This document shows positions 3,760 to 58,386 of a stretch of 64,000 bases of DNA, one piece after another. The DNA is from a virus, in IMG/VR virus record IMGVR_UViG_3300045988_156245; one strand, given 5' to 3'. The notes under the pieces are model-generated. The model did no database searches. It was not told the origin of the DNA and saw only the letters and a program-made list of their open reading frames with translations. How positions within the stretch are numbered: position 1 is the first letter of the stretch; each line of letters opens with the position of its first letter. Both the position numbers and the translations under genes were made by a program.

Positions 3760-6700
3760 TTATTTAAACAATATTTTAATAGTATTATCACTCACTCTTT
3801 CAAGTACAACCCAAGTATTTAAACCTTGTTGTTCTGCATAAGTTGCAATACCATTATTTGCACATTTACATAATTGACCTGGTAAGCAAGTTCCATCATC
3901 ACGAACGTACATCTGTCCTATTAAACCAACAGCAGACCATTCAGGTCTATCAGTTCTAGGTATATATGATTCAGCTTGCCCTATATCATATTCTTCTGAT
4001 ATTATATCATTCCCATTGTTATTTTTTAATCTTCTTCCTAAAGAATCTGTTTTATATTTTTTATGCCAGTCATTTAATGCATCTGGAGAACCTAAAATTC
4101 CATATGTTTCTGATGTTATACCTATTATATTATCATTAGGATTTGCTTTTTTTATTTTTTGATTATTTACAGTTACAAAATATCCTGTTCTATCTTCTTT
4201 ATTTAAATTATTATCATCCCAAGGGTAAATAAATTCAGCATAATCTGTTCCTTTAATAGACGTTTTTTTAGCAGATATTTGTCCTTGATAACCATCTACT
4301 AAAAAAGTCGTTTCTAATGAAGCTGTTCCCGATGTATTCAGAATTTGAAATTTTATAGTATCCTTATTTGGTGCGGAGTCACCAGAGCCCCAAGTTCCAG
4401 TTAAAGAACCATTTATGATTGCTAATCCAGAACCTAAAACTGTAGCAGAAACTTTATTAAAATTAGCATCCATATTTCCAGCTTTTAACTTATTTGTTCC
4501 AGATGTCATATTGTTCGGACCTAACTGAATATCTCCATTATAATCAACAACAAAAGCGTTATTTAATTTATTAGAGCTAGTCCCATTTCCTACAATAAAT
4601 AATGCATTAGCTGATGTTTTATTAAATTGTCCCACTACAGTTTGACAATTTCTATTAGTATTTAAACTTAGTCCATGTGCAAAACTATATCTATCATTTG
4701 CCAGTGTATTTAGTCCCCCTGCATGAGAAGCATCTCCATTTGCTAGTGTACAGTCTCCCTCTGCGTGAGAGTATTTTCCAATTGCTTGTGTGCCTCCTCC
4801 TTCTGCATGAGCGCCTTCTCCGCTTGCAATAGTTTGGCACTTATTTGCGTGATACTGTGATGTAGAACCCTCTGCATGAGCTCCTCTTCCAGATGCAATA
4901 GTAGCTACACCCTCAGCATGAGCGCCTATGCCACTTGCAGTAGTTGCAGCAGTATTACTAAAATAGTTTCCATGTTCGTCGTATCCAAAAATAATTCCTG
5001 TACAACCTTCAGTGTGAGAATAATCTCCAGATGCAATAGTAGCTTGCCCTTCAGCATGAGAAGCTTTACCCTCTGCTTTTAATGGATTAGCAATTGCAGT
5101 TTTTGTTGTATTTAATATTGATTCTCCCTCTACATGAGAATGAGTACCATAAGCCACTGTCCAATATCCCTCAGCATGAGAACCTTCTGCATCAGCAACA
5201 GTATGAATACCTTCTGCATGAGATGCAATCCCATTTGTTACAGTCTTCGTTCCTTCAACATGGGAATAATCATTCATCGCAGAGTTATCATATCCTTCAG
5301 CATGGGCTGCAACTGCCCATGCTTTAGTTGCCCAACCTTCTGCATGAGCATACTTAGCATCTTCAATGGTGCTAGTGCCTTGACCTTCTACATGTGAACT
5401 TTCTGCCTTTGCATAAGTCCCATTACCAAAAGATGAACTATTTAATCCTTCGGCATGTGCGGCATCTCCTACTGCAATTGAATTACTGCCAGAAGCCAGT
5501 GATTCTGTTCCTATTGAAGCACTATAAACCCCATGTTGCTTAGAACTGCTGCCTCCAAGGTCAATTTTATCATCTTGATACAAACTTCTTTCTGCTTTAT
5601 CTTCTAAAACAACTTGTACATTTTCATGTGTTCCATCATTATATTCTACAATTACATCTTCTGCATTTACGCTAATAGGATACTCAGGAGTTGTAGTCAT
5701 TTCATTAATTTTAATTTTAGCTTTTTTAATAGCATCTTTTTCAACTTCTATTTCTTTATAAGTATAAGTAAAAGAACTTACAGGCTGAGAGCCCACTCCA
5801 TTAACTAAAGAGTCAACTGCAATAACATATCTTCCACCATCTTTAAAATAATTATTATAATCAAAAGTATAGCTTGTATTTGTTAAATTATCTGCTATTA
5901 ATGTATTATTAATATATAATCTATATATAATTGTATATGAATACTGTATTTGTGGATTCCAAGAAAATGTAATTTGTTTACTTGTTCTATCTAAATTAGA
6001 AACTCGAATTCCAGTAATAGGTATTGGTCTATTAATATAAACACAAGGTGCTGAAGTAGCTACTCCCGCATCATTATTAGCAGTTACAGTAATATTAACC
6101 TGTCCTATATAATCTTTTAATGCCGTTTGCTTTAAATCATAAAAATTCTTTTCTGTACTGTAATTATTTCCTAAAATACTTACCACATATGAACTTGCAT
6201 TCTCAATAGCTCCCCAATGCAACACTTTATTTGTATCTATATACAAACCTGTTGGGGCTGCTGGTGCACGCCATTCGCTTAAAAAGAAAGTAGTCTGATT
6301 ACTTGTAGCAGTTTCAGTAATACCAGGGTCTGTGATAGTTCTTGAAGTCTCAACTATTGCTGTATAAGTATTATTTCCATCTAAATTATATTGTCCATCA
6401 TGGGGGAAAAAACTATCTGTATTAGATTTTAATACTTTAGTAAATTTTAATACTGACCCCTTATAAACCTTTAAGAGTTTATTAAAACTATTACTAGAAA
6501 CTTCATTATCATATACTAGTTTTATATTACATTGTTGTCGATATGTTTCATTTACTGTAATAGAAAAAGATTGAGGCTTTAAAGAAGGCCTAGTATCTGC
6601 CTCATATGTAGATGTAATAGATTGCTTAGCTGAATCATATATGTTAGCTCCAACTCTAATTCTATAGAAAAATTCAAACTTATATTCTCCCGCAGTAATT

Positions 6701-7573: not shown

Positions 7574-8263
7574 TTAATATTTATAATTCATAATAAAAGA
7601 GGTTTTTGTATTTTGTTGATTAAAAACAAAACCTATAAAACTAATATTGTAATCATCATAAATTTTATAATAATTACTAGGACCAATTTTAATATCTTCA
7701 TTATTTAAAACAAAAAAGATATTTTCATCTCCTTCAATAGTAAGCTCTCTAATTGAAGTCATTGTACTATCTCCAAGTACACTTCCTATTAAATTATTTA
7801 CTATTCTTATCTCTAAATTATCAATAGATAAAACATGAGAAACATAATTATTAGATGTTTCAACTTGAAAGATAACTTGATTACATGCTTTTTCTGGAGA
7901 AAAAATAATTTCATATTTTTTCACATTGTTAGTTTTATCTTGAATCCCACTTTCTAAATTTAATTTTCTAAAGATAATATCATTATCAGCTAATTCTCCT
8001 TCAGAATTATAACTTAATAATATATTTTTATCTGTATCAGATGGTACTAATTCAAAATAAAGATAATAACATTTACCAACTTCGAATTGCTTACCATTTT
8101 CTAGTTGAATAACTGTATAATATCCATTACTGTCTCTTGTGGTATTAATAATTTTATAATCTTCTAAAGCAATAGGCTTAGAATAATAATTATCTATATC
8201 TACTAAAGTATCATTATTAGTGCCTTGATATAAATGTTGTCCTATTTTATATGTTTTAGCCAC
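7574..8263 (-). CDS. hypothetical tail-module protein (229 aa)
   Basis: ORF in tail module; no recognisable motif. Confidence 0.5.
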   Translation of the reverse strand: MAKTYKIGQHLYQGTNNDTLVDIDNYYSKPIALEDYKIINTTRDSNGYYTVIQLENGKQFEVGKCYYLYFELVPSDTDKNILLSYNSEGELADNDIIFRKLNLESGIQDKTNNVKKYEIIFSPEKACNQVIFQVETSNNYVSHVLSIDNLEIRIVNNLIGSVLGDSTMTSIRELTIEGDENIFFVLNNEDIKIGPSNYYKIYDDYNISFIGFVFNQQNTKTSFIMNYKY

Positions 8264-8278
8264 TCCTTTTACTCCTTT

Positions 8279-10456
8279 CTAAATAGTATCCAATGCTCTA
8301 GTGCAAGATATAGACATTGTGCCTTCCGCTTCTAGAGGGATTGAATAAGATTCTATTATATAATCTCCATATATTTCACTCTTTTTATCTAAAACAGATA
8401 TACGAATATTTGGCTCAAGATAATAAATTGGAATACTTTCTATTTCAATACTCTCATTTAAACTTACGCATTGATATAATAAATCTCTAGCTGCATAAAA
8501 AGCACTATTCCAAATAGCACTTGTTTTAGATAAATTTTTATAAATAGATGAAGGAACCAATATATATCTTTGCCCAGTTAATAAGTAATCATCAATTTCT
8601 TTTTGAGTATCTTCTCCCACTGTATAATCTTCATTACATTCAATTAAAACATAATCAGGAATATCAGGTTCAAAAATACAATTAACTTTACTATCAGAAT
8701 ATGATTTAGTTCTTTTTCCAATATTATCTATACTATATTTAGCAACTTCTGTATTGCTATCTATAATATCTAAATAATATTTAACATTATACATATTAAT
8801 ATCTGTTTTTGCTATATATTTATTGTTTTCTATAGAATAAAATGCAGGCCACGCCTCTTCTAGTTCTATAAAATAATTATTAGTATCTCCGCCGGAACGA
8901 GTACCCTCAATCCCGCTTAAATATAAATCATCTCTCCAATTAGGTGGTGTTATAGTGTCTACTATTGTAGCATCTTTTAATATAACATAATCTTTAATTT
9001 TAGGATTCCATTGATAAAAAATATTAGTTGAAATATCTCTATAAACTAATTCATTCACTCCTATTTTAGGAAAATTATCATAATTAGAATAATCAATACT
9101 AACCAATAATCTATTATTTGTTTTATCATAAACAAAATTATTATATTTATGGTTACTCCAATTTGCGGGAATTGTATCAATAGCTAAATGATAACGTATT
9201 TGAGTAGCAGTTCCATCTATACCTTTCGCTTCGCCCCATACTATAAAATCATTCTTTATATTTTCCCATTTCGGAGAATTAGAATAAGAAATAAATAAAT
9301 CTGGATTATTAAATACATATGTAGCATTGCTTTTGCCTATTTCAGATAAATAAGCATCTTTTTCTAAATTTAATAATTTGTTTAAATCTCCCGTTGCTTT
9401 TGAAGTATTTAAGTAATTTTGAATTTCTCTAAATACAAAATTTCCATCTATATCATAAAAATATTCAAAATTGCCAAGTGTATCTTTTATTTTATCTAAG
9501 ATTGAAGTGATAGAATCTCCTGCATTTGCTTGTAATCCATTTGCATCATCTTCTGCGGGGTATACTAAATCTTCATAAAGACCACCAATATAATCTCCTT
9601 CAGAAAAGTATAAATTACCTAAACCATTAGTAGAGAAACTATATCCTGCAGCAGGTGGCGTTGGTACATCTTCTATTTTTTCAACAGTATCACCTAAATA
9701 ATAAATACCATTGTGGCTATCATTTTGAGCAAAATAAATTCCTTGTTTTTTCTCTTGTGTATTATTATTATTATTATCTTCACTTGTCGTAGTAGTTGTC
9801 ACTTTTTTCTTTTTCCACATCATTCCCATAATTGCGGTTTTAGGAACTCCATCAATAATAATTTTACTTAATTGCTCTCCACCCCAATGATTTACTAATT
9901 CAGTAATTAATTGATATATTGTTATTTGCTCTGTTACAATTGCTCCAGTAGCTTTATCAAGAGTATCAAAAGTATCTAAATATACAGAAGCGGGGAATGT
10001 GCCTCCACAATCGCCATTTAATAAACACATTTTATCTTGTAAATTCATTGATATTATTAAACCAGCTTCACTATTAGAAAAAGATGGAGACTGCATTACA
10101 TAAATACCTTGTGGAAACCATATATAATCATAATCAGCATATTGCGGATATTCTTTCTTTAAAGTATTTTTAATACCTATTTGTAAAGAAACCTTTCTAT
10201 TGATAACAAATAATTGCTTTAAATCCATGCTATCATAGTCTACAGTATCCGCAATAAATTCTAAACTAGCTGTTCTTCTCACGGTAGAGCTACCATCAAT
10301 ACTAATGCTACCGGAAGTAACCCTACCAGTTACTTCCGCAATAGCTCTTTCTTCTTTTGTTAAAACTATAACTTTTATAATCTTTGTTTTTATTTTTTCT
10401 AAATCCAACTGATGTAAAAACAAAGAATCAGATAAGTAAGAAAAATTATTTATCAT
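8279..10456 (-). CDS. large distal-tail/baseplate protein (Tal-like position)
   Basis: 725 aa from the ATG at 10456 (10 nt after ggagag); second large gene after the tape measure; poly-Asn/Thr linker. Confidence 0.45.
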   Translation of the reverse strand: MINNFSYLSDSLFLHQLDLEKIKTKIIKVIVLTKEERAIAEVTGRVTSGSISIDGSSTVRRTASLEFIADTVDYDSMDLKQLFVINRKVSLQIGIKNTLKKEYPQYADYDYIWFPQGIYVMQSPSFSNSEAGLIISMNLQDKMCLLNGDCGGTFPASVYLDTFDTLDKATGAIVTEQITIYQLITELVNHWGGEQLSKIIIDGVPKTAIMGMMWKKKKVTTTTTSEDNNNNNTQEKKQGIYFAQNDSHNGIYYLGDTVEKIEDVPTPPAAGYSFSTNGLGNLYFSEGDYIGGLYEDLVYPAEDDANGLQANAGDSITSILDKIKDTLGNFEYFYDIDGNFVFREIQNYLNTSKATGDLNKLLNLEKDAYLSEIGKSNATYVFNNPDLFISYSNSPKWENIKNDFIVWGEAKGIDGTATQIRYHLAIDTIPANWSNHKYNNFVYDKTNNRLLVSIDYSNYDNFPKIGVNELVYRDISTNIFYQWNPKIKDYVILKDATIVDTITPPNWRDDLYLSGIEGTRSGGDTNNYFIELEEAWPAFYSIENNKYIAKTDINMYNVKYYLDIIDSNTEVAKYSIDNIGKRTKSYSDSKVNCIFEPDIPDYVLIECNEDYTVGEDTQKEIDDYLLTGQRYILVPSSIYKNLSKTSAIWNSAFYAARDLLYQCVSLNESIEIESIPIYYLEPNIRISVLDKKSEIYGDYIIESYSIPLEAEGTMSISCTRALDTI

Positions 10457-41520: not shown

Positions 41521-41753
41521 TTGCACAAAAATTTTTGAATTGAAACGTTTTTATTTGTGCAATATGCACAATTCCCACAAAGAACATACGTTTGTCAATA
41601 GGCAAATTGCACAAAAATGTGGGGATAAAAACGTTTCAATCCTGTGCAATTTGTACAAATTGCACAAAACAGTTTTAGTGCAATTTTACCAACTTCCGGC
41701 ACTTTGCACAAAAAGTATCAAAAGCTTTAGAGTTATTTTTGTGCAATTTGCAC
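41521..41753. repeat. cluster of at least 8 TTGCACAAA / TTTGTGCAA boxes
   Basis: forward copies at 41521, 41607, 41659, 41704; reverse at 41554, 41644, 41738; variant ttgtacaaa at 41650. Confidence 0.75.
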
Positions 41754-42707: not shown

Positions 42708-42735
42708 TTGAATTGTTCTGTTATTTTGATATAAT
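42708..42735 (+). promoter_or_regulatory. promoter with conserved ATAAGATAAAG leader
   Basis: TTGAAT-N16-TGaTATAAT; leader acataagataaaggaaagg then hairpin 42760-42776. Confidence 0.55.
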
Positions 42736-43381: not shown

Positions 43382-43437
43382 GTTTACATAAGATAAAGAA
43401 AGGGAGCGACCAAGGGGTCGCTGATAGGTAAAACAAA

Positions 43438-43713
43438 ATGATGAATCTTACAGAAAGAATTAAAAAAGTTGAAGAAATTAGCAGACAGTTACAAATAGCA
43501 TACCCACAATATAGTAATAAAGATATTGAATCATTTAATTTGAATTGTATAAAATCAATTGGAGATTTTGCTTTTATTGCTATTTTTGCTAATGTAGACT
43601 GTTATACAATAACTTTATATAACTCAATAGGGTTTAAAAAAATAGAAATAGAAAAAAATGATATTGATTTTCAATACCTTTATAAAATAATAGAAATATT
43701 TATGGAAAGATAA
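43438..43713 (+). CDS. hypothetical protein (91 aa)
   Basis: ORF behind the conserved leader. Confidence 0.6.
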   Translation: MMNLTERIKKVEEISRQLQIAYPQYSNKDIESFNLNCIKSIGDFAFIAIFANVDCYTITLYNSIGFKKIEIEKNDIDFQYLYKIIEIFMER

Positions 43714-43723
43714 AAAGAGGTAA

Positions 43724-43736
43724 GGGGGGGGGGGGG
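43724..43736 (+). repeat. G13 homopolymer tract
   Basis: 13 consecutive G immediately 5' of the ATG at 43737. Confidence 0.9.
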
Positions 43737-43774
43737 ATGAAAAGCCCCCACACAATAAAAAAGAGGTGTTTAAA

Positions 43775-43912
43775 ATGAAACAAAAATATTTTGAAATAGG
43801 TAACCGACTAACAACTGGCTTAGGACTTGAAAATAAAACAGTGATTAAATACTGGAAAGCATACGAAAAAAATAATTTTTTTGTCTGCTGGCTAATATCT
43901 AAAGTGGCATAA
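43775..43912 (+). CDS. small ORF (45 aa) coupled to a 13-codon leader ORF
   Basis: leader ORF 43737-43778 (MKSPHTIKKRCLK) ends in ATGA overlapping the ATG at 43775; aagaggtg RBS; terminator follows. Confidence 0.4.
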   Translation: MKQKYFEIGNRLTTGLGLENKTVIKYWKAYEKNNFFVCWLISKVA

Positions 43913-43964
43913 ATGCCACTTTTTATTTTTGTGCGTTCGGTCTACCCGAACGTACGTTCGGAGC
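43900..43964 (-). ncRNA. candidate antisense small RNA c
   Basis: minus-strand promoter 43971-43999; RNA begins ggcuccgaacguacguucggguagaccgaacgc with mutually exclusive CCGAAC/GUUCGG pairings. Confidence 0.3.
43903..43930 (+). terminator. rho-independent terminator
   Basis: agtggcat/atgccact stem followed by tttttattttt. Confidence 0.6.
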
Positions 43965-43970
43965 CGAAAA

Positions 43971-43999
43971 ATTATATCATATATGTGTCAAGTTGTCAA
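43971..43999 (-). promoter_or_regulatory. antisense consensus promoter c
   Basis: reverse complement TTGACA-acttgacacatatatga-TATAAT (N17, TGn). Confidence 0.6.
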
Positions 44000-44056
44000 G
44001 AGAAAAAAATGAAATTTTTTCAATTAAATAATTTTATCCCAAAATTAAAAAGGTGC

Positions 44057-44085
44057 TTGACTATTCGGTTATTATACTGTATAAT
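44057..44085 (+). promoter_or_regulatory. promoter
   Basis: TTGACT-N17-TATAAT. Confidence 0.6.
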
Positions 44086-44121
44086 TGTATACAGATAGAG
44101 AGATATAGGAGGCTTAATAAT

Positions 44122-44430
44122 ATGATTAATATTAGAACAATTAAAAAGTTACAAAATAATGACGGATTAACATTAAAAGGTGGTAAGTGTATCACTTATA
44201 AATCAGGTTATCAGGTAGCAACAGAGGGAATCGAAACAACAAACCCTCAAGAGGCTATACAAGCCGTTAGGGCATACGGCGGGAATTGCGGTGTATGGTT
44301 TGAAAATGGTATCTATTATATAGATAAAAGCCACAGAGTAACCACAAAAAAAGACGCTTTACAGTTAGGGAGAGAAAAAAATCAAATAAGCATTTTACAA
44401 TGGCGAACAATGAAATTAATATATTGTTAA
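44122..44430 (+). CDS. hypothetical protein (102 aa)
   Basis: ATG after the aggagg RBS. Confidence 0.6.
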   Translation: MINIRTIKKLQNNDGLTLKGGKCITYKSGYQVATEGIETTNPQEAIQAVRAYGGNCGVWFENGIYYIDKSHRVTTKKDALQLGREKNQISILQWRTMKLIYC

Positions 44431-44448
44431 AAAGGGGAAACCCTTTTT
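44429..44448 (+). terminator. short terminator hairpin
   Basis: aaaaagggg aaa cccttttt. Confidence 0.45.
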
Positions 44449-44460
44449 AACTTTTTGTTG

Positions 44461-44740
44461 TGACTAACAGAAGTTAGTCTTGACTAACTGTTATTAGTAT
44501 TATCTAACTATAGTTAGTTTAGTCTAATTTTAATTAGTGATGTCTAACTATGGTTAGTCTAGACTAACTGAAGTTAGAAGTGTCAAACTTTAGTTACTAT
44601 AGGCTAACTTTGATTGGTTGTTTGAAACTCAGGTTAGTATAGGCTAACCGCAGTTAAGTGTTTGAAACTCTTGTTAGGTGTAACTAACCAGAGTTAGTAT
44701 AGGCTAACTCAAATTAGTTATTTGAAACTCTTGTTTTATT
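44461..44740. repeat. array 1: 14 phased 20-bp units with CTAAC-N4-GTTAG palindromes
   Basis: exact 20-bp register from 44461; arms conserved, centres and spacers variable; 40-bp super-period in the right half. Confidence 0.9.
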
Positions 44741-44743
44741 AAG

Positions 44744-44783
44744 CGGACCGTGGACATTGGACCTTATTTTTGTCCACGGTCCG
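44744..44783 (+). other. conserved GTGGACA hairpin, copy 2
   Basis: 13-bp stem cggaccgtggaca/tgtccacggtccg, 14-nt loop ttggaccttatttt. Confidence 0.75.
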
Positions 44784-44793
44784 TCTGGTCCAG

Positions 44794-44814
44794 CCGAACA
44801 TACGTTCGGGTTTT
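44794..44814 (+). terminator. CCGAAC-atac-GTTCGG terminator
   Basis: 6-bp GC-rich stem plus tttt; identical copy at 49289-49309. Confidence 0.6.
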
Positions 44815-44998
44815 AAACTGATTAAAAAACATCAAGTTGATTGATGTTTTTTATCCCATAAAATAAATCAAGTTAGTTGATGTTTTTTAATCAGTAAAAT
44901 ATATCAAATTCCTTGATATATTTTAATTTGAAATATTTTTATTTATTTTTGTGCAAATTGTACAAAAATTCAATGTAAATTTTGTGCAATATTCCCCC

Positions 44999-45027
44999 TT
45001 GCAATTATACACCGTAGGGTGTATAAT
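44999..45027 (+). promoter_or_regulatory. promoter with conserved leader
   Basis: TTGCAA-N17-TATAAT; leader acataagataaagaaagg plus hairpin 45052-45068. Confidence 0.55.
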
Positions 45028-46240: not shown

Positions 46241-46270
46241 TTGACAAAATAAAAAAAATTATTATATAAT
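46241..46270 (+). promoter_or_regulatory. promoter with conserved leader
   Basis: TTGACA-N18-TATAAT, then gtataagataaagaaagagg. Confidence 0.55.
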
Positions 46271-46919: not shown

Positions 46920-46948
46920 TTGACACAGCCCCTTTTATATGATATAAT
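46920..46948 (+). promoter_or_regulatory. promoter
   Basis: TTGACA-N17-TGaTATAAT. Confidence 0.6.
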
Positions 46949-47204: not shown

Positions 47205-47233
47205 TTGACAATCATTTAGTTTTGATGTATAAT
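47205..47233 (+). promoter_or_regulatory. promoter with conserved leader
   Basis: TTGACA-N17-TATAAT then atatacataagataaaggaaagg. Confidence 0.6.
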
Positions 47234-47267: not shown

Positions 47268-47705
47268 ATGAGAAAAGTACTTGACAGACAAACTTATGTA
47301 AGAGCAATAGGAGAGAAAGAGTGGCACAGAACTTCAATTTTTAAACATTTATCCTATCAAGAGGAAAAAGAAATTACAATTAAAATAATACAGTATGATA
47401 ATTTTAAAGACACATTAAGATACGTAGAAACAGATGAAATTTATAATGCAGAAATTGATTATACTTTATTTAGAAATAAGCCTTATATTAATATTTATCA
47501 CGCACCTAAATATTCATTAATGGAACGCTCTTACTTCAAAATTACAGAAAAGAATTTTGTTCCTATAGAATTTAAAATTGAATATGAAGAGTGTGAAGAT
47601 ATAAGCCTAGATGCTCTTAAGAGATTACTTACTGCCAAAGAATATTGTGATTTTATAAATGATAATTTAGATACAAAAGTAAAAAATATGTTGTTGAGGG
47701 GTTGA
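47268..47705 (+). CDS. hypothetical protein (145 aa)
   Basis: ORF behind the conserved leader. Confidence 0.6.
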   Translation: MRKVLDRQTYVRAIGEKEWHRTSIFKHLSYQEEKEITIKIIQYDNFKDTLRYVETDEIYNAEIDYTLFRNKPYINIYHAPKYSLMERSYFKITEKNFVPIEFKIEYEECEDISLDALKRLLTAKEYCDFINDNLDTKVKNMLLRG

Positions 47706-47731
47706 CAAAAACCCCTCCCCTATGTTATAAT
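47702..47731 (+). promoter_or_regulatory. promoter of candidate small RNA
   Basis: TTGACA-N18-TGtTATAAT overlapping the stop codon of the 145-aa gene. Confidence 0.55.
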
Positions 47732-49122: not shown

Positions 49123-49136
49123 TAAAAAATCAATAG

Positions 49137-49167
49137 GCAAGTTGCACAAAATGTGACTTGCTTTTTT
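49137..49167 (+). terminator. terminator
   Basis: gcaagt/acttgc stem (loop carries a TTGCACAAA box) then tttttt. Confidence 0.5.
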
Positions 49168-49182
49168 GTGCAAAATTACTAC

Positions 49183-49211
49183 TTGACAAAGTGCGGCGGA
49201 TGTGCTATAAT
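49183..49211 (+). promoter_or_regulatory. promoter of candidate small RNA
   Basis: TTGACA-N17-TATAAT; the -10 context atgtgcTATAAT is identical to the promoter at 53770. Confidence 0.55.
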
Positions 49212-49217
49212 AAAATG

Positions 49218-49309
49218 GGACTCTATAGACTCATATATTTCAGATGTTTGTCGGCTCGTCGATGGTTGAGACGAGCCGAGTTGTCAAGCCGAACATACGT
49301 TCGGGTTTT
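49218..49309 (+). ncRNA. candidate small RNA with hairpin variant copy 4 and CCGAAC terminator
   Basis: 10-bp stem tcggctcgtc/gacgagccga (49251-49279), then ccgaac-atac-gttcgg plus tttt (49289-49309); no RBS. Confidence 0.4.
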
Positions 49310-49385
49310 AAATTGATTAAAATACATCAAGAACCTTGACTTATTTTATCCCATAAAAAACATCAAGTTGATTGATGTATTTTAA

Positions 49386-49640
49386 TCTAACAAAAGTTAG
49401 ACACAACTAATTCTAGTTAGGCTTGACTAACCCCAGTTAGCCTAAACTAACTAAAGTTAGTTACTATTAATTTAAGTTAGCTGTAACTAACTTTTGTTAG
49501 CCACCTCTCATTAAAGTTTTGTTAAACTAATTTTAGTTAGATTGCCCCTAATTCAAGTTAGTTATAACTAACGCAAGTTAGACTTCACAAATAAAAGTTA
49601 GTTAAAACTAACAGCAGTTAGATTAAACTATCGTCATTTT
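49386..49640. repeat. array 2: 13 phased 20-bp units with CTAAC-N4-GTTAG palindromes
   Basis: left arms at 49387, 49407, 49427, 49447, 49467, 49487, 49507, 49527, 49548, 49568, 49588, 49608, 49628; GTTAG arm nearly invariant; alternate units read aACTAAY. Confidence 0.9.
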
Positions 49641-49747
49641 GCACAAAATTTTCAATTGAAAAATTTTGTATGATTGCACAAAAAATAATATCCCCAACCC
49701 CGCATTTTTGTGCAATCTGCTAAAGTTAATTAAAATGATAACAAAGT

Positions 49748-49775
49748 ATTGTTTTTTGTAACGCATTTGATATAA
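49748..49775 (+). promoter_or_regulatory. promoter (weak -35, extended -10)
   Basis: TTGTTT-N16-TGaTATAAT; 75-nt leader with hairpin gtgctt/aagcac 49781-49800. Confidence 0.45.
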
Positions 49776-49849
49776 TAGACTTGTGCTTGATAAATAAAGC
49801 ACTTGAACATTTACAATTTAATATTTTAAGAGAAAGGTGGTAATATTTT

Positions 49850-50332
49850 ATGATTATCGAATTTGCAACTATTATCTTTTTTATTTGTAGTTTAATCAAT
49901 GTAATGTTATCTACATTAAAAACCATTTTAACAGTTAAAGCGTCAAAAGGTGTGGCAACCATTATTAATGCAATAACTTATGGCTTTTATGCTATTGTAG
50001 TAAAACAGTTAGCAAGTTTAGACTTAATAACTACTGTTACAGTTACTATTGTAACTAATATAATAGGGGTGTATGTTTCAATGTGGTTATTAGAAAAAAC
50101 AAAAAAAGATTGTTTATGGAAAATATCCGTTACTACTAAAGATAATACTTTAGTAGAAAAATTAGAAAAGTTTAGTATTTCTTATGTAATGAACCCAGTT
50201 CAGTATAAAAAACAAACTTATTATAATATTGATGTTTTTAGTGAAAATCAAAAGGATAGTTCTATTATTGAAAACATACTAAAAGAATATAAAGTAAAAT
50301 ACAATATTACAGAAATTAATAAAAAATTTTAA
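49850..50332 (+). CDS. UPF0316 (YebE-like, DUF5698/DUF2179) membrane protein
   Basis: 160 aa; 3 TM N-terminal half with LSTLKTILTVKASKGVATIINAITYGFYAIVV resembling B. subtilis YebE, small soluble C-terminal domain. Confidence 0.55.
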   Translation: MIIEFATIIFFICSLINVMLSTLKTILTVKASKGVATIINAITYGFYAIVVKQLASLDLITTVTVTIVTNIIGVYVSMWLLEKTKKDCLWKISVTTKDNTLVEKLEKFSISYVMNPVQYKKQTYYNIDVFSENQKDSSIIENILKEYKVKYNITEINKKF

Positions 50333-50349
50333 AAAAATTAAAAAAGTGC

Positions 50350-50378
50350 TTGCAATTCCTCGCAAGATATGATAATAT
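50350..50378 (+). promoter_or_regulatory. promoter (TTGCAATTCC class)
   Basis: TTGCAA-N17-TGaTAATAT; paralogous to 51466-51493, both followed by gtcaagRg...ttgcaacYcca. Confidence 0.5.
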
Positions 50379-50459
50379 TAATATTGTCAAGAGGCACAAG
50401 GGATTGCAACTCCACTTTTGACAATGTACATTTATAAATTAATAAAGAGAGGTAACAAA

Positions 50460-51437
50460 ATGAACAAGAAATTTTATTTAACAGTAGACACCGAAACGGC
50501 AACAATTCCATTTGCAAATCAGATTTGCAAAAATGCTAATCAAAAACAGAAAATTGCGATTGCTAAACCTTTAGTATATGATATTGGTTGGAGCATTACC
50601 GACAGACAAGGTAATATCGTAAAAACAGAAAACTTTTTAGTTCAGGAAACGTTCTTTGTTCCTAACGTTTTCAATACTGCTTATTACAGAGATAAAAGAC
50701 CTATTTATATGGAATTGTTAGAAAAAGGCGAGATTAAAGTTGATTGCTGGAATAACATTATGAAGTTATTCATCGCAGACCTTGAAAAAGTTGATATTTC
50801 AACTGCCTACAATGCGTGTTTTGATTTTAAAAAGGCAATACCATTTACTGAACGTTATATCAAGGCTTTATATTCAAGTGACTATCAAAAATGGGAAGAT
50901 AGACAAAAAAAGAGTTGTGAGGACATTCTTAATAATCGCAGTAATGCTAAAAATGAAGAATATCTAAATCCATATTTTGAATTAAGGGGCGTACAGTACC
51001 CTATAGCCGACTTATGGTGTATTGCTTGTGAACGTTTAATAAACATCAATAAATACAGAAACTTTTGTCTTGATAGAGGTTATGTAACAAACAGTGTAGT
51101 ATTTTTCAAATCATCAGCCGAAACATCATTTCAATATTTAATGAACAACTATGATTTTATCGAGGACCACACCGCATTATCGGACGCACTAATTGAAAGC
51201 CAGATTTTAACAAAAGCCTTGAAAAAGGGCAAAATTGAGCCTACATTATATGCGTTTCCGTTTAGGGATTTAGGTTCAACTATAGATTATGCAATAGACA
51301 CAAACCATAAATATATTGAGCCATTATACGAATTGTTATTAAAATATATTGAAAATAATGATGGTTTTGACAAAGGTGGGGCATATTGGAAGAAGATTAT
51401 GAAAGAACTTGAAAAACTTGAAAATGCAAACTTTTAA
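50460..51437 (+). CDS. DEDDh (DnaQ-like) 3'-5' exonuclease
   Basis: 325 aa from the ATG at 50460; ExoI LTVDTETA, ExoII YNACFDF, ExoIII HTALSDA. Confidence 0.7.
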   Translation: MNKKFYLTVDTETATIPFANQICKNANQKQKIAIAKPLVYDIGWSITDRQGNIVKTENFLVQETFFVPNVFNTAYYRDKRPIYMELLEKGEIKVDCWNNIMKLFIADLEKVDISTAYNACFDFKKAIPFTERYIKALYSSDYQKWEDRQKKSCEDILNNRSNAKNEEYLNPYFELRGVQYPIADLWCIACERLININKYRNFCLDRGYVTNSVVFFKSSAETSFQYLMNNYDFIEDHTALSDALIESQILTKALKKGKIEPTLYAFPFRDLGSTIDYAIDTNHKYIEPLYELLLKYIENNDGFDKGGAYWKKIMKELEKLENANF

Positions 51438-51465
51438 AAAAAATAAAAAAATTTAATAAAAAGGG

Positions 51466-51493
51466 TTGCAATTCCATTTCAAAGTGCTATAAT
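51466..51493 (+). promoter_or_regulatory. promoter (TTGCAATTCC class)
   Basis: TTGCAA-N16-TGcTATAAT. Confidence 0.5.
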
Positions 51494-51559
51494 AGATAGT
51501 GTCAAGGGAATGGAGTTGCAACCCACCAAATAAAAAATTAAGAAAAGAGGTAATGTATT

Positions 51560-51931
51560 ATGACAAACAAAAAAATGACAAAGAGAGATTATTTTAACGG
51601 ACTTTTAGGAGTGATTGAAAATCACAAAGATAGCATTGAGAATTATGAAGATTTTAAGGCTTTCATTGAAAGAGAGATTGAATTACTTAATAAGAAACGT
51701 AGCAATTCAAAACCAACAAAGACACAGATTGAAAATGAAAAAATCAAAGAAAAAATTCTTGAGGTTTTAACAGATGTAAATGAAGTTATGACAATTTCTG
51801 AATTAATGACTGCTGACGGTTTAGAAAATTATTCAAATCAGAAACTTTCAGTTTTATGTCATCAGTTAGTAAATGAGCATAAGGTAGTCAATACCAAAGT
51901 AAAAAAAGTTTCATATTTCAAAATTGCCTAA
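51560..51931 (+). CDS. hypothetical winged-helix-like protein, paralog A
   Basis: 123 aa; shares EIELLNKKRS..KPTKTQIENEKI...MTI.E(L/M)M....L..YSNQKLS.LC with 53238-53633. Confidence 0.6.
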   Translation: MTNKKMTKRDYFNGLLGVIENHKDSIENYEDFKAFIEREIELLNKKRSNSKPTKTQIENEKIKEKILEVLTDVNEVMTISELMTADGLENYSNQKLSVLCHQLVNEHKVVNTKVKKVSYFKIA

Positions 51932-51993
51932 AGGCTATGGGGATAGCCACAAAGGTTATCCCCTTAAAATCTTAAAAAAGGAGTTGATAAAAA

Positions 51994-52362
51994 ATGACTA
52001 AGGCAGAAGAAAAAGCCAAAGAAATTAAAGGTTTAATGGAACGTCATTCTTTAACATTGGAAGAAGCCACCCAACTATGGGAAGAAGATAATTCAGACTA
52101 CTGTAATGAAGAAATGGCAGAAATGGAGAATAAGGCTAAAGCCTTAAAACGCAGGTATGAGAAAGATTTAACAAAAAAACGCAAGCCTACCGAAAGGGAA
52201 CGCAAAGTTGATACAGAAAAACTTGAAATTTTAAATTTAATAGTTCCAACATTACAAACAATTAGTGACAATGTGGAACGCAAGAATGAAGTTGAGTTAC
52301 ATTTTACAAAAGGTGGTAATGATTACACGATTAAATTAATCAAACATCGTAAAAAGAAGTAA
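51994..52362 (+). CDS. hypothetical charged protein (122 aa)
   Basis: aaggag RBS; strong terminator follows. Confidence 0.6.
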   Translation: MTKAEEKAKEIKGLMERHSLTLEEATQLWEEDNSDYCNEEMAEMENKAKALKRRYEKDLTKKRKPTERERKVDTEKLEILNLIVPTLQTISDNVERKNEVELHFTKGGNDYTIKLIKHRKKK

Positions 52363-52413: not shown

Positions 52414-52580
52414 CAATGTTACATATTGTATGAGTGCGGGGGAGCCGGTATTAGTGACTTTTACCTAAATACAATATGTGATATGTCACGTACTATGTTA
52501 CATATTATAATATGTGATATATCACACGCAAGGTCACATATTACAATATGTGATATGTTACATACAATATGTGACCTTAA
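52405..52580. repeat. cluster of ATATGTGAT / ATCACAT direct and inverted repeats with 7-bp phasing
   Basis: acaatatgtgatatgt(c/t)ac at 52471, 52543, partial 52564; tgtgatatatcaca palindrome 52513-52526; tcacatatt-ac-aatatgtga palindrome 52534-52553. Confidence 0.8.
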
Positions 52581-52834: not shown

Positions 52835-52936
52835 ATGTGGAATAAAGAAAAACATTGGAAGCACGACGTATTAAAATTGCATAGAAAATATGAAAAAGAA
52901 AGAAAAAAAGTGCTTGACAAAAAAGTAAATAAGTAG
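52835..52936 (+). CDS. small basic ORF (33 aa)
   Basis: aaaggag RBS; the next promoter is embedded in its 3' end. Confidence 0.35.
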   Translation: MWNKEKHWKHDVLKLHRKYEKERKKVLDKKVNK

Positions 52937-52942
52937 TATAAT
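52914..52942 (+). promoter_or_regulatory. promoter
   Basis: TTGACA-N17-TATAAT. Confidence 0.6.
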
Positions 52943-53174: not shown

Positions 53175-53203
53175 TTGACAAAATAAAATAAAAATGATAT
53201 ACT
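53175..53203 (+). promoter_or_regulatory. promoter
   Basis: TTGACA-N17-TGaTATACT. Confidence 0.6.
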
Positions 53204-53237: not shown

Positions 53238-53633
53238 ATGGAAAAGATGATAAAGAGAACTAAAAGAGCAATGTATGAAGAAATTATGAAAATGGTAGAG
53301 GGCAAAGAAAGAGTTGCAACCGAAGAAGAAATTATTGCTTTCTGCGAACACGAAATTGAACTCTTAAACAATAAGAGAAGTGGCTCAGGTAAACCAACAA
53401 AGACACAGATTGAAAATGAGAAAATTATGGAAACTATCTATTCAGTTCTTGAAAATGCGGGTGTCGGAATGACAATTACAGAAATGATGAAAACTGATGA
53501 ATTAAATGCTTATTCAAATCAGAAATTATCTGCTCTTTGCAAGAAAATGTATGAAAATGAGAAAATTCAGAAGAAAATCATCAAGAAAAAGTCATTTTTC
53601 GCTGTAAAAGGTGTAGAAATCACTGAAAAGTAG
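53238..53633 (+). CDS. hypothetical winged-helix-like protein, paralog B
   Basis: 131 aa; paralog of 51560-51931. Confidence 0.6.
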   Translation: MEKMIKRTKRAMYEEIMKMVEGKERVATEEEIIAFCEHEIELLNNKRSGSGKPTKTQIENEKIMETIYSVLENAGVGMTITEMMKTDELNAYSNQKLSALCKKMYENEKIQKKIIKKKSFFAVKGVEITEK

Positions 53634-54935: not shown

Positions 54936-55140
54936 CACTCTACTTAATTTCACTTAATTTTATATAATTCTACTCAATTTTACTCAGTTTTATTTATTTT
55001 CTGCTCAAATTTTATTTAATCTTTACTTAATCTTACTTATTTTCCACTCAATTTTTTATTTACCTTCACTTAATTTTATCTTATCTACTCTACTTAATTT
55101 AACTTACTTTAATTTTATCTTATCTTTATCCCACTTTCCC
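54936..55140. repeat. degenerate array of about 11 (C/T)ACT(T/C)AATTTTA-like direct repeats
   Basis: ctctacttaattt, cacttaatttta, tactcaatttta, actcagtttta, gctcaaatttta, tacttaat, cttacttatttt, cactcaatttttt, cacttaatttta, tacttaattta, cttactttaatttta at 10-22 bp intervals. Confidence 0.7.
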
Positions 55141-55681: not shown

Positions 55682-55799
55682 GGTAACACTTCATTAACAT
55701 TTTTAATTAAACTTGGTACACTTTATTAACAATCATTTAAGCAAAGTTGGTACACTTTTTTAACATTTATTTAAAATTTTTTGGTACACTTTATTAACA
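55682..55799. repeat. four 17-18-bp iteron-like direct repeats, 33-34 bp phasing
   Basis: ggtaacacttcattaaca 55682, ggtacactttattaaca 55715, ggtacacttttttaaca 55749, ggtacactttattaaca 55783. Confidence 0.85.
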
Positions 55800-55805
55800 T
55801 TTTTC

Positions 55806-56432
55806 TTAAATAATTTTTGTTTTAACTTCTTCTTCATTAAAATTTAAAGTATTATTAACACTGTCTAAATAATATTTAGTTTTATTGCCTTCCATTTGAG
55901 CATGGTATTCAATTAAATCTAATTTTTTTAAAACAAAAAGTATATCTAATATAGTTTGATTACTAGCCCCTTTATTTTTAGTACTTAAACCTAAAATAGC
56001 TTTAATATAGCTTAAAGAAAAAGGTCCAGATTTTTCTTCGTTTTTATACCATATCTTAATTAAAATTGCTAATACAGATAAACTTCTTTCTTTTAATGTA
56101 TTAACTAAAACCCTAACAGTATTAATAGGCAATAGAGTAGCAATATTACTATCTAATACAACTAATTCATACATCTTTACTTCTTCATTATAAATAATAA
56201 GACCACTATCTAATAAATTATGAAAATTTTTTGATGCAGTTTGTCTTGTTATTCCTAATCCTTCTGCAAGATTAACAAATTTACAATCTTCCTTTTTTAC
56301 AAATCTAGCTTCCATATCTGGAAAAGTTACAGAAATAGATTGCAAATAACCATACATTCTGTCTGAATAGGTTCTACTAGATAAATAATGCTTATCACTA
56401 GGCATTTGTCTTGAATTTTTTTCTATTTTCAT
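55806..56432 (-). CDS. double winged-helix DNA-binding protein (RepA-like initiator or repressor candidate)
   Basis: 208 aa; two wHTH-like segments NLAEGLGITRQTASKNFHNLLDSGLIIY and YIKAILGLSTKNKGASNQTILDILFVLKKLDLIEY; flanked by inverted iteron arrays. Confidence 0.45.
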   Translation of the reverse strand: MKIEKNSRQMPSDKHYLSSRTYSDRMYGYLQSISVTFPDMEARFVKKEDCKFVNLAEGLGITRQTASKNFHNLLDSGLIIYNEEVKMYELVVLDSNIATLLPINTVRVLVNTLKERSLSVLAILIKIWYKNEEKSGPFSLSYIKAILGLSTKNKGASNQTILDILFVLKKLDLIEYHAQMEGNKTKYYLDSVNNTLNFNEEEVKTKII

Positions 56433-57276: not shown

Positions 57277-58386
57277 ATGACAACTATTATACAAACTGGA
57301 ACTAAATATGATTTATATGATTCAAGTATACAGACACATCAGTCTTTACCTGCGGGAATCTATAAGGTAACTTTTAACCCTCAGTCAGGACATCAATTAT
57401 TATATGTTGCGGATAAGAATGATATTAAAGAAAAAATTTATGGCGTTCATACAAAGAAAGTTGAAAAAGTATTAAATACATTTCGTAACTTCAATAGAAG
57501 CGAAGGAGTGTTATTAAGCGGCGATAAAGGTATTGGTAAATCTTTATTCACTAAATTATTAACAAATGCGGTAATTGATATGGGATTACCAGTTATTTAT
57601 GTTAATGAAGCTAGTCCAAATTTAGGGGATTATATTGATAGTATTCCTACTGAATGTATGATTTTATTTGATGAATTTGATAAAACTTTTAGTTCTCCTT
57701 ATGAACAAAATGATTTATTATCACTTTTTGACGGAACTTCTCGTAATAAAAAGTTATTTGTAATTACTTGTAATAATTTAGATAGCCTTAGTTCATTTTT
57801 GGTAAATAGACCAGGAAGATTTCATTATCATATCTGCTTTAAATATCCTACATCAGAAGATATTGTAAAATATTTAAAAGATAAGTTAGATGAAAAATAT
57901 TGGGGCGAGATACCAAAAGTAGTAAAGCGAGCAACCGCAATTAAAACAAACTATGATACTTTAAGAGCAATAGCTTATGAACTTCAGCAAGGTTGGTCTT
58001 TTGAAGAAGCAATAGAAGATTTAAACATTGATAAAGGTAATAAAACAATTTATTTTAATATATGCTATACGCAAAAAAATAAAGAACGTCATAGTCTTAA
58101 AGTACCATTTGTTCCTTCTAAAGTAGAAGCGGAAAAGGTAAAATTATCACTTACAGATAAATTGGGAAATTTTATTGGTGAAGCAATATTTTCTACTGAT
58201 GATTTTTACTTTGATATAAATGATAATGATTTTAAACTTAATATAGAAAAAGCAACTTATCAGTTTAGCACAATTAAACGTGGTATATATATGTCACAGG
58301 ATGGAGAAGAAATTGTAACTGACAAAGACAAAGAAAATGCAGTTATCACTGAAATTGTTATTACCAATATATCAGAAGATTTTTGA
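57277..58386 (+). CDS. classic-clade AAA ATPase
   Basis: 369 aa; Walker A LLSGDKGIGKS, Walker B MILFDEFD, sensor-1 VITCNN, SRH NRPGRFHY; about 130-aa C-terminal domain of unknown type. Confidence 0.75.
   Translation: MTTIIQTGTKYDLYDSSIQTHQSLPAGIYKVTFNPQSGHQLLYVADKNDIKEKIYGVHTKKVEKVLNTFRNFNRSEGVLLSGDKGIGKSLFTKLLTNAVIDMGLPVIYVNEASPNLGDYIDSIPTECMILFDEFDKTFSSPYEQNDLLSLFDGTSRNKKLFVITCNNLDSLSSFLVNRPGRFHYHICFKYPTSEDIVKYLKDKLDEKYWGEIPKVVKRATAIKTNYDTLRAIAYELQQGWSFEEAIEDLNIDKGNKTIYFNICYTQKNKERHSLKVPFVPSKVEAEKVKLSLTDKLGNFIGEAIFSTDDFYFDINDNDFKLNIEKATYQFSTIKRGIYMSQDGEEIVTDKDKENAVITEIVITNISEDF

Follow-up and report, generated by a model that had tools for sequence, protein, structure and literature searches.

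Two runs of a short palindrome, each approximately 260 bp long, lie in the genome of an approximately 130-kb human-gut phage, and they raise the question of which protein, if any, reads them and what a phage would do with so many copies. We analysed a 64-kb stretch of this genome (the window), which makes up half of the genome and has a G+C content of 29%. The terminase, portal and sigma-like genes are on the minus strand of the window, and dozens of small genes are on the plus strand from 40.6 kb onwards; this early region, in which both runs are found, is rich in terminators and has ten perfect TTGACA/TATAAT promoters. The phage turns up very often in human-gut metagenomes (one of its early proteins, the winged-helix protein c1, was found on 188 contigs), and its portal shows distant kinship to phAss-1 and large Firmicute phages. 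The explanation that we favour, to which we would give an even chance, is that the second run (array 2) and its companion (array 1) form an operator platform for a host metal-responsive repressor and act as a high-capacity sink for it.

Anatomy and register of the arrays

A sequence-only reading had described array 2 as thirteen CTAAC-N4-GTTAG units spaced by 20 bp with a single 21-bp step, and this description is borne out (Table 1). The step lies between 49527 and 49548 and is kept in all 13 strain variants. The GTTAG arm is nearly invariant, as had been noted, being exact in 11 of the 13 units, and some left arms are weaker; two or three units are badly degenerate (49507, 49628 and partly 49588). 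A 40-bp super-repeat that had also been proposed is present but weak, with an identity outside the arms of 0.43 at lag 2 compared with 0.36 at lag 1. With up to one mismatch allowed, CTAAC-N4-GTTAG matched the window 18 times against 1.5 expected, a number that none of 100 shuffled sequences reached, and 17 of these matches fall inside the two arrays (44464-44717 and 49387-49621). Tandem Repeats Finder (TRF) reported period-20 repeats at both sites. Identity between the units of array 2 is 0.83 at arm positions and 0.39 elsewhere, where random sequence gives 0.29.

Table 1 Features of the two arrays and their flanks in the 64-kb window
Feature	Position	Strand	Remarks
Array 2	49387..49640	.	Thirteen 20-bp units, CTAAC-N4-GTTAG register
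Array 2, GTTAG-N6-CTAAC register	Unit starts 49396, 49416, 49436, 49456, 49476, 49496, 49516, 49536 (N7), 49557, 49577, 49597, 49617		
AGCCGAACATACGTTCGGGTTTT	49287..49309	+	Exact CGAAC-N4-GTTCG palindrome, then T-run; 3' hairpin of ~90-nt transcript
Perfect sigma-A-type promoter (TTGACA-17-TATAAT with TG)	49183..49211	+	Drives short structured transcript 49218-49309
Intrinsic terminator of upstream gene	49135..49163	+	Overlaps TTGCACAAA box pair (49142-49150, 49165-49173)
Inverted-repeat module (…AAAAAACATCAAGTTGATTGATGTATTTTAAT)	49310..49386	.	Direct sequence reading
Three TTGCACAAA boxes (49639, 49674, 49707)	49639..49715	.	Separate operator-like family upstream of early promoters
Extended -10 promoter (TTGTTT-16-TGaTATAAT)	about 49749-49776	+	Operon 49850-52362
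Intrinsic terminator directly left of array 1	44426..44451	+	Further terminators follow array 1
Array 1	44464..44737	.	~14 units; GTTAG-N6-CTAAC register: 13 units, 44473 to 44728

The identity of the basic dyad did not survive comparison with isolated copies, most of which read GTTAG-N6-CTAAC: among exact solo copies elsewhere, we counted 40 GTTAG-N6-CTAAC and 2 CTAAC-N4-GTTAG. The CTAAC-N4-GTTAG dyad is therefore the junction between true units. A logo built from 411 distinct units gives the consensus aGTTAGy-N4-rCTAACt, that is, one 16-18-bp palindrome per 20-bp unit, and across loci successive matches are spaced by exactly 20 bp in 166 cases and by 40 bp in 49. When array 2 is read in the true register, five of its 12 units are perfect, two have one mismatch, three have two mismatches and two are broken, one of the latter because of the 21-bp step. 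In its geometry, the core of the unit (TTAG-N6-CTAA) corresponds to the site of a single DtxR/IdeR dimer. LexA had been considered as the array binder on the basis of a shared 5-N4-5 shape and was dropped after the true register was found.

That the two arrays diverged independently, as the sequence-only reading held, agrees with a between-array identity of 0.32 outside the arms, so they are not recent copies of each other. Their flanks are more alike. The 23-mer AGCCGAACATACGTTCGGGTTTT is identical at 44792-44814 and 49287-49309, which confirms that near-identical terminator modules accompany both arrays. This module holds an exact Firmicute LexA/Cheo-box consensus (at 44795-44808 and 49290-49303), and a third such box is at 43947-43960. 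Array 2 lies between terminators (49135-49163, 49289-49304 and the leftward repeat at 49310-49386) and the promoter at approximately 49749-49776, with its end approximately 110 bp ahead of the -35 element of that promoter; the TTGCACAAA boxes that intervene had been recognized earlier as a box pair. On the minus strand, the module at 49310-49386 reads as a hairpin followed by a T-run, a predicted leftward terminator that would shield array 2, and a paralogous bidirectional module is present to the right of array 1 (44815-44925; 44823-44927 by TRF). Array 1 is approximately 270 bp from its next promoter, a distance that contains terminators. In the 64-kb window, we saw no strong promoter reading into array 1 or array 2 and no promoter overlapping either. 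Since the promoters lie outside both arrays, a titration or filament role is indeed more natural than that of a simple operator.

The operon downstream of array 2 (49850-52362) encodes a weakly UPF0316-like membrane protein, a protein with DEDD-exonuclease-like motifs that were recognized by eye (a family search gave no match), c1 and a further protein, c2. The UPF0316-like label of the first gene holds only loosely: it matches PRK04164 (NCBIfam), which we take to be the UPF0316 family, at an E value of 2.8e-4, far below the curated cut-off. The TTGCACAAA boxes look like a separate family of operators, judging from their placement. The window has 17 exact copies where 1.06 would be expected; of these, 16 belong to the early region, where they form clusters ahead of early promoters (41521-41746, 43212, 43311, 44948, 44981, 49142-49173, 49639-49715 and 52672), and they are present too in the distant relatives L095, L065 and L037.

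Other features were recorded alongside the arrays. Perfect consensus promoters whose apparent products are only tiny transcripts (approximately 40-90 nt) occur at 42609-42547(-), 43182-43095(-), 43999-43901(-) and 49183-49309(+); each transcript runs into a CGAAC…GTTCG-type hairpin and a terminator, and three of them run leftward, against the early genes. Near-identical promoter-plus-5'UTR cassettes (TATAATGTaTACATAAGATAAAGaAAGG) at 42735, 43371 and 45020 resemble PeSL-type modular shuffling, and strain mosaic breakpoints lie on consensus early promoters at 46241-46270, 46920-46948, 47205-47233, 47702-47731, 52914-52942 and 53175-53203. Approximately 14 direct copies of ACTTAATTT with a 10-11 bp period occupy 54941-55115, a convergent intergenic region at which the strand skew flips, and could be a curved-DNA or origin-like element. 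The palindrome ATATGTGATATGTCACATA has four copies with a 36-bp period at 52470-52567, and a 34-bp repeat (TTGGTACACTTTATTAACA…) has three copies at 55686-55819, just downstream of a ScpB/MarR-like winged-helix gene (55806-56432(-)). A run of approximately 13 G residues at about 43725-43737, between two small early genes, could be slippage-prone. On the minus strand at about 8279-8281, a single in-frame TAG separates an open frame of approximately 740 codons from a 229-aa ORF (7574-8263(-)); TAA and TGA are absent from the split frame, and read-through would give approximately 995 codons. Relatives of this phage group have been reported to recode TAG (PMC10607447).

Distribution and conservation among gut phages

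When viral contigs were scanned for pairs of adjacent units, 30 loci with G+C contents of 29-49% were recovered. The element belongs to the early regions of a clade of uncultured gut phages, in which it occurs singly or in arrays of up to approximately 28 units; many of the loci have long arrays (as many as 20-28 units), and a 14-kb stretch of one lineage contains seven arrays. No such arrays were found in cultured or annotated phages (INPHARED collection). L065 and L068, two relatives whose aligned segments are approximately 92-96% identical to the window, have one or two units plus a leftward promoter in place of array 2. In L068 array 1 is missing too, because recombination between two near-identical promoter/5'-UTR cassettes removed 43403-45020. 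Among strains, array 1 differs in length by the gain and loss of whole units. By these alignments, arrays and solo units are positional alleles. The existence of natural relatives without one or both arrays implies that the arrays are dispensable, and it is possible that their benefit is weak, conditional or nil. The sequence-only reading had envisaged a special pair of arrays that might be bridged by looping, which does not fit an element with 1 to approximately 28 units per site across the clade and array-less relatives: because array 2 is replaced in L065 and L068 and array 1 is absent from L068, an obligatory array-to-array loop is unlikely.

Dispensability also argues against a role as an origin, centromere or packaging site. 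The arrays do resemble the iteron and centromere arrays of plasmids and phages (P1 incA/incC, R1 and pSK41 parC, F sopC), which are phased tandem protein sites, sometimes in two blocks, that are used for titration, handcuffing or filament building (PMC5016525). In addition, one relative, L023, has a tetrad of DnaA boxes next to its array, and the window has a weakly DnaC/DnaI-like AAA+ gene (57277-58386) whose matches are far below cut-off. Such arrays, however, are read by a cognate Rep or Par protein encoded by the element and are needed for its maintenance, whereas the phage arrays have no such genes nearby; we found no ParA, ParM or TubZ-like motor gene in 40-64 kb and no Rep gene near the arrays. 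Natural relatives lack or replace the arrays, and other lineages carry up to seven of them per 14 kb. Near-complete contigs (128-132 kb) have no fixed starting point, and the arrays therefore show no link with assembled ends. We consider it extremely unlikely that the arrays are an essential DNA-transaction site, be it an iteron origin, a partition centromere or a packaging or injection-stop signal. A terminal-repeat or genome-end location was rejected because contig starts are arbitrary, and a link to origins or DnaA was rejected because DnaA boxes adjoin an array only in L023.

The sequence-only reading had raised the comparison of related genomes, and in it the arms prove to be conserved while the centres drift. 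In an alignment of array 2 from 13 distinct strain variants, variation affects 16 of 130 columns in the arms and 40 of 131 outside them (Fisher p=4.6e-4). Nucleotide diversity is 0.029 in the arms and 0.065-0.089 elsewhere; the arms are approximately threefold less variable than centres and spacers. These comparisons support the view that the arrays are selected, protein-site-like repeats with functional arms.

This pattern bears on whether the arrays arose by slippage or recombination from a promoter-terminator-palindrome cassette and have no function beyond providing homology for module shuffling. Several observations fit such an origin: strain mosaic breakpoints coincide with consensus early promoters, the deletion in L068 ran between two promoter/5'-UTR cassettes, the unit number of array 1 varies, the arrays are dispensable, and other lineages have other signature palindromes. 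There is also a precedent in the PeSLs of T4-type phages, conserved regulatory cassettes that likewise bound small early ORFs and carry strain breakpoints (PMC2839356, PMC4122927). The promoter cassettes and the context of the solo units fit that precedent, but a PeSL is a single promoter with its hairpin, does not form tandem phased arrays and does not match a host operator, and the precedent leaves the conserved arms of the tandem arrays unexplained. A functionless minisatellite would be expected to show whole-unit homogenization or even decay; instead, the arms are kept while centres and spacers have diverged to near-random identity (0.39 compared with 0.29 for random sequence and 0.83 for the arms), and motif and phase alike are retained in phages whose GC contents span 29-49%. 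We therefore regard expansion without function as quite unlikely.

As an observation in its own right, lineages without the unit have other palindromes in like positions, such as TTAGACTT-N3-AAGTCTAA, which occurs 24 times in L103, and GGGGTTGA-N6-TCAACCCC, the signature palindrome of L088, with eight copies.

Another possibility is that the units act in RNA, as transcript hairpins that serve as a protein sponge, processing site or terminator. The units are palindromic, some lineages have a promoter whose very short RNA includes a solo unit, and the neighbouring CGAAC palindrome closes an approximately 90-nt structured RNA. The arrays themselves, however, are bracketed by terminators with no strong promoter reading in, and what is conserved is the sequence rather than pairing: over 22 arrays, mismatches show no strand-consistent G·U bias, and approximately half are disruptive. 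The consensus extends to an 18-bp palindrome that leaves only a 2-nt loop in the CTAAC-N4-GTTAG register, and an Rfam search returned no family above noise. An RNA-level role is very unlikely.

A candidate DtxR-family operator at feoAB loci

If the arms are protein sites, the occurrence of the unit in bacterial chromosomes may indicate the protein. All double units found in a scan of bacterial genomes are intergenic. Three independent ones are upstream of feoA-feoB (L039, L047 and L044; two Lachnospiraceae and one Spirochaetales), where they form 20-bp-phased runs of 2-4 units at approximately 235-340 bp from the feoA start, which is far for a simple repressor site. In the spirochaete (L044), a repressor gene with the domains PF01325 and PF02742 is divergent from feoAB, with the units in between. 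Three further chromosomal double-unit matches flank radical-SAM genes.

As an independent test, we fetched repressor homologues by protein similarity and searched ten of their genomic contexts, 64 kb in total, for the unit. All four contexts in which a dtxR-like gene is divergent from feoA-feoA-feoB have exact or one-mismatch units in the intergenic region, whereas the six contexts without feoAB have none, bar a single one-mismatch match; overall, the protein-selected contexts gave 12 unit matches against 2.05 expected. The distance from unit to repressor start in these loci is 78-244 bp. Units are thus found at feoAB in L039, L044, L047, L106, L112, L113 and L117, and lie between feoA(A)B and a divergent PF01325+PF02742 gene in L044, L106, L112, L113 and L117. 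The feoAB-linked DtxR-family regulators are short, two-domain proteins of approximately 125 aa from gut anaerobes, and the unit appears to be the predicted operator at feoAB loci that are paired with a gene for a DtxR/IdeR-family repressor in these bacteria.

Double and triple 20-bp-phased units are also found between genes in unrelated phyla, with neighbours that have no obvious metal link. These include Tessaracoccus (L034 1106-1139 and L040 1413-1446, where the neighbour is a glycoside hydrolase by reading alone), Saccharimonadales-type sequences (Saccharibacteria; L032, L046, L050 and L053) and Mariniblastus (L048 7423-7480); other neighbours are GDSL lipase, PLD (both in Saccharibacteria) and FabD genes. 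In these phyla the motif may be a site for related regulators, or its likeness to the unit may be due to chance.

On this evidence, we think it likely that the unit is a DtxR-family operator and, with similar confidence, that array 2 is a tandem, phased operator platform for a metal-dependent repressor of this family encoded by the host. Sites for TnrA/GlnR, FapR, CIRCE, KorB, Crp/Fnr and LytTR were considered and presumably all have the wrong spacing for the unit, and a text search for the motif brought up nothing of relevance. Neither the window (64 of approximately 130 kb of the genome) nor the phage loci yielded a DtxR-like ORF, and in an annotated phage collection DtxR-like genes occur only on short, unverified virome scaffolds.

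The resemblance to known sites of the family is close but not complete. IdeR uses one winged-helix monomer per CCTAA pentamer, and TTAGG-N4-CCTAA is the site of a single dimer (PMC8464063); the iron box of DtxR and IdeR, like the phage unit, has inverted TTAG…CTAA elements 6 bp apart (PMC8464063), and it shares with the chromosomal units the presence of iron-uptake genes beside a gene for a DtxR-family repressor. The canonical iron box, however, is a 19-bp element in which two dimer sites, offset by 5 bp, interleave on opposite faces of the DNA, whereas the phage units do not overlap or interleave, have a 20-bp phase and are repeated 12-28 times. The fifth base of the pentamer also differs (TTAGy in the unit, TTAGG in the actinobacterial iron box), and the conserved extra base of the unit is outer (G-TTAG / CTAA-C), whereas that of the iron box is inner. 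A closer parallel in arrangement is MntR of B. subtilis, four dimers of which bind four adjacent 18-bp sites cooperatively with a 19-bp period at mneP, through dimer-dimer contacts between DtxR-family dimers on adjacent palindromes; streptococcal MntR homologues also bind multiple adjacent sites (PMC11882963). The mneP array and the operators of ScaR, SloR and MtsR are like the phage arrays in having adjacent palindromes with a period of approximately 19 bp, but the four mneP sites abut a chromosomal promoter and serve activation, whereas the phage has 12-13 sites in a promoter-less spacer.

Could a phage protein be the reader instead? In such a case, a dimeric DNA-binding protein encoded by the phage would coat the arrays and build a repressive or architectural filament, and one candidate would be c1 (51560-51931 and 53238-53633), whose genes are beside arrays in L018, L009, L015 and L038. 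A confident structure prediction for c1 (pLDDT 85.5) suggests a helical hairpin and a winged helix, and since the window covers 64 of approximately 130 kb, another binder may be encoded in the rest of the genome. Against this, approximately half of the c1-bearing loci have no units, the recognition helix of c1 (SNQK-L-SAL) is identical whether or not a locus has units, an enrichment test found no ORF family near c1 that co-occurs with the unit, and the unit is present at feoAB in bacterial chromosomes, where no phage protein is involved. Searches of PDB sequences and folds with c1 returned only a generic winged helix, and two large protein searches returned only near-identical variants. We rejected c1 as the specific binder on the grounds of its distribution and invariant recognition helix, and consider a phage-encoded binder in general to be unlikely.

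The c1 proteins form a multi-copy early family (at the two positions in the window and in L064-L103) with up to 5-6 paralogues per 20 kb; an invariant KPTKxQxENE linker accompanies the winged helix, and the partner gene c2, whose product ends in KHRKKK, usually follows c1.

Possible roles of the proposed host-repressor platform in the phage

For a platform of host-repressor operators, we envisage that the metal-loaded repressor would bind as one dimer per unit and that the 20-bp phase would set approximately 10-12 dimers side by side on array 2 and approximately 10-13 on array 1, presumably with cooperativity. Both arrays lie in terminator-flanked spacers of the early region, with no strong promoter reading in. 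Replication of the phage DNA would titrate the host repressor away from its operators on the chromosome, with derepression of feoAB and the remainder of the regulon as the outcome. Because no promoter overlaps the arrays, the number of sites ranges from 1 to approximately 28 and the arrays are dispensable, a sink is the most natural role. The loci also look like decoys in that they hold many high-quality sites uncoupled from a promoter, with both arrays bracketed by terminators. Our confidence that the arrays act mainly as a sink or decoy nonetheless falls somewhat short of even.

The main alternative is metal sensing, in which the host repressor, bound to the units, would switch phage promoters according to the metal status of the host; in that case, the arrays would control neighbouring early operons, such as that at 49850-52362, cooperatively or at long range. 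Solo units lend this some credit. They are found 14-30 nt past stop codons or terminators, ahead of the next early promoter, and 11 of 33 have a consensus promoter ahead of them whose -10 element is 8-38 bp away, compared with 11% of random positions; exact LexA boxes behave likewise (9 of 28). By its sequence context, this placement is the classic position of a putative operator, and as such it also supports the favoured explanation. In relatives, strong promoters have solo units at about +1 to +30, and the solo unit found in place of array 2 in L065 lies in the path of a leftward consensus promoter. When bound to upstream tandem sites, IdeR and MntR can also act as activators of transcription (PMC4598388; PMC11882963). 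In the window, however, promoters lie outside the arrays, the next one at approximately 110 bp from array 2 and, with terminators in between, approximately 270 bp from array 1, and 12 to 28 sites far exceed the needs of any known operator. Metal sensing is rather unlikely, both as a switch and in its long-range form, and the remaining rivals are less likely still.

The proposed sink has counterparts elsewhere. Corynephage carries the diphtheria toxin gene. The tox operator of this gene is read by the DtxR of the host (PMC13001254), so that it, like the array as a candidate site for a host DtxR-family repressor, is a phage-carried operator; unlike the promoter-less array, it is a single site that overlaps one promoter, in a temperate phage and at a toxin gene. 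The datA locus of E. coli is a sink for DnaA. In synthetic yeast arrays, tandem decoy sites sequester a regulator and reshape the response of its target genes (PMC3322331). A sink in a phage would differ from these decoys in that it would grow with phage replication. To our knowledge, tandem decoy sites have not been known as a phage strategy.

The units share their spacers with what look like sites for other host regulators. Sites for LexA, parS, CtsR, Rex, CIRCE and DnaA were counted by consensus motif, with the Rex box taken as TTGTGAA-N4-TTCACAA with up to one mismatch. Exact LexA boxes (CGAAC-N4-GTTCG) number 91 in 33 phage loci and 0 in shuffled sequence. A perfect host-type parS site (TGTTTCACGTGAAACA) is present in four phage loci (L090 9123-9235, L016 10386, L022 12618 and L089 8955); in L090 it is 19 bp from a solo unit and is followed by two Rex-box matches interleaved with units. 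The 22-unit array of L023 is flanked by CtsR heptad-repeat operators and four tandem perfect DnaA boxes (4165-4290 and 4865-4909), and L012 has a CIRCE (HrcA) element at 7742, between its two arrays. Since exact host-regulator sites occur in the same spacers, the commonest palindrome there is plausibly a host-regulator site too. It is possible, though doubtful, that the promoter-less operator arrays of 12-28 sites, their number raised by genome replication, together with clustered LexA, Rex, CtsR/HrcA, ParB and DnaA sites, titrate host regulators; on the same speculative footing, the iron-uptake, SOS, redox, chaperone and replication regulons would be reprogrammed without an encoded anti-repressor. 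Separately, we noted LexA boxes in L014 (192-248), that such boxes are often 10-13 bp after the -10 element of a strong promoter and that L103 has a tandem run of at least five LexA boxes with a 16-bp period at 5230-5370.

DtxR-family operators, cooperative multi-site binding, a phage-borne operator for a host DtxR (tox) and decoy arrays are each already known; in our literature search we found no phage described as carrying 12-28 sites for a host metalloregulator in an array devoid of promoters. A true decoy function would make the arrays a new phage strategy and add a DNA-decoy route to host takeover. If the arrays bind the iron or metal repressor of the host, a very common gut phage would manipulate or monitor the iron homeostasis of its host through DNA sites alone, and the unit would define the operator of a DtxR-family repressor that accompanies feoAB and is widespread among gut Clostridia and spirochaetes. 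Phage infection would then be linked to the iron economy of the gut.
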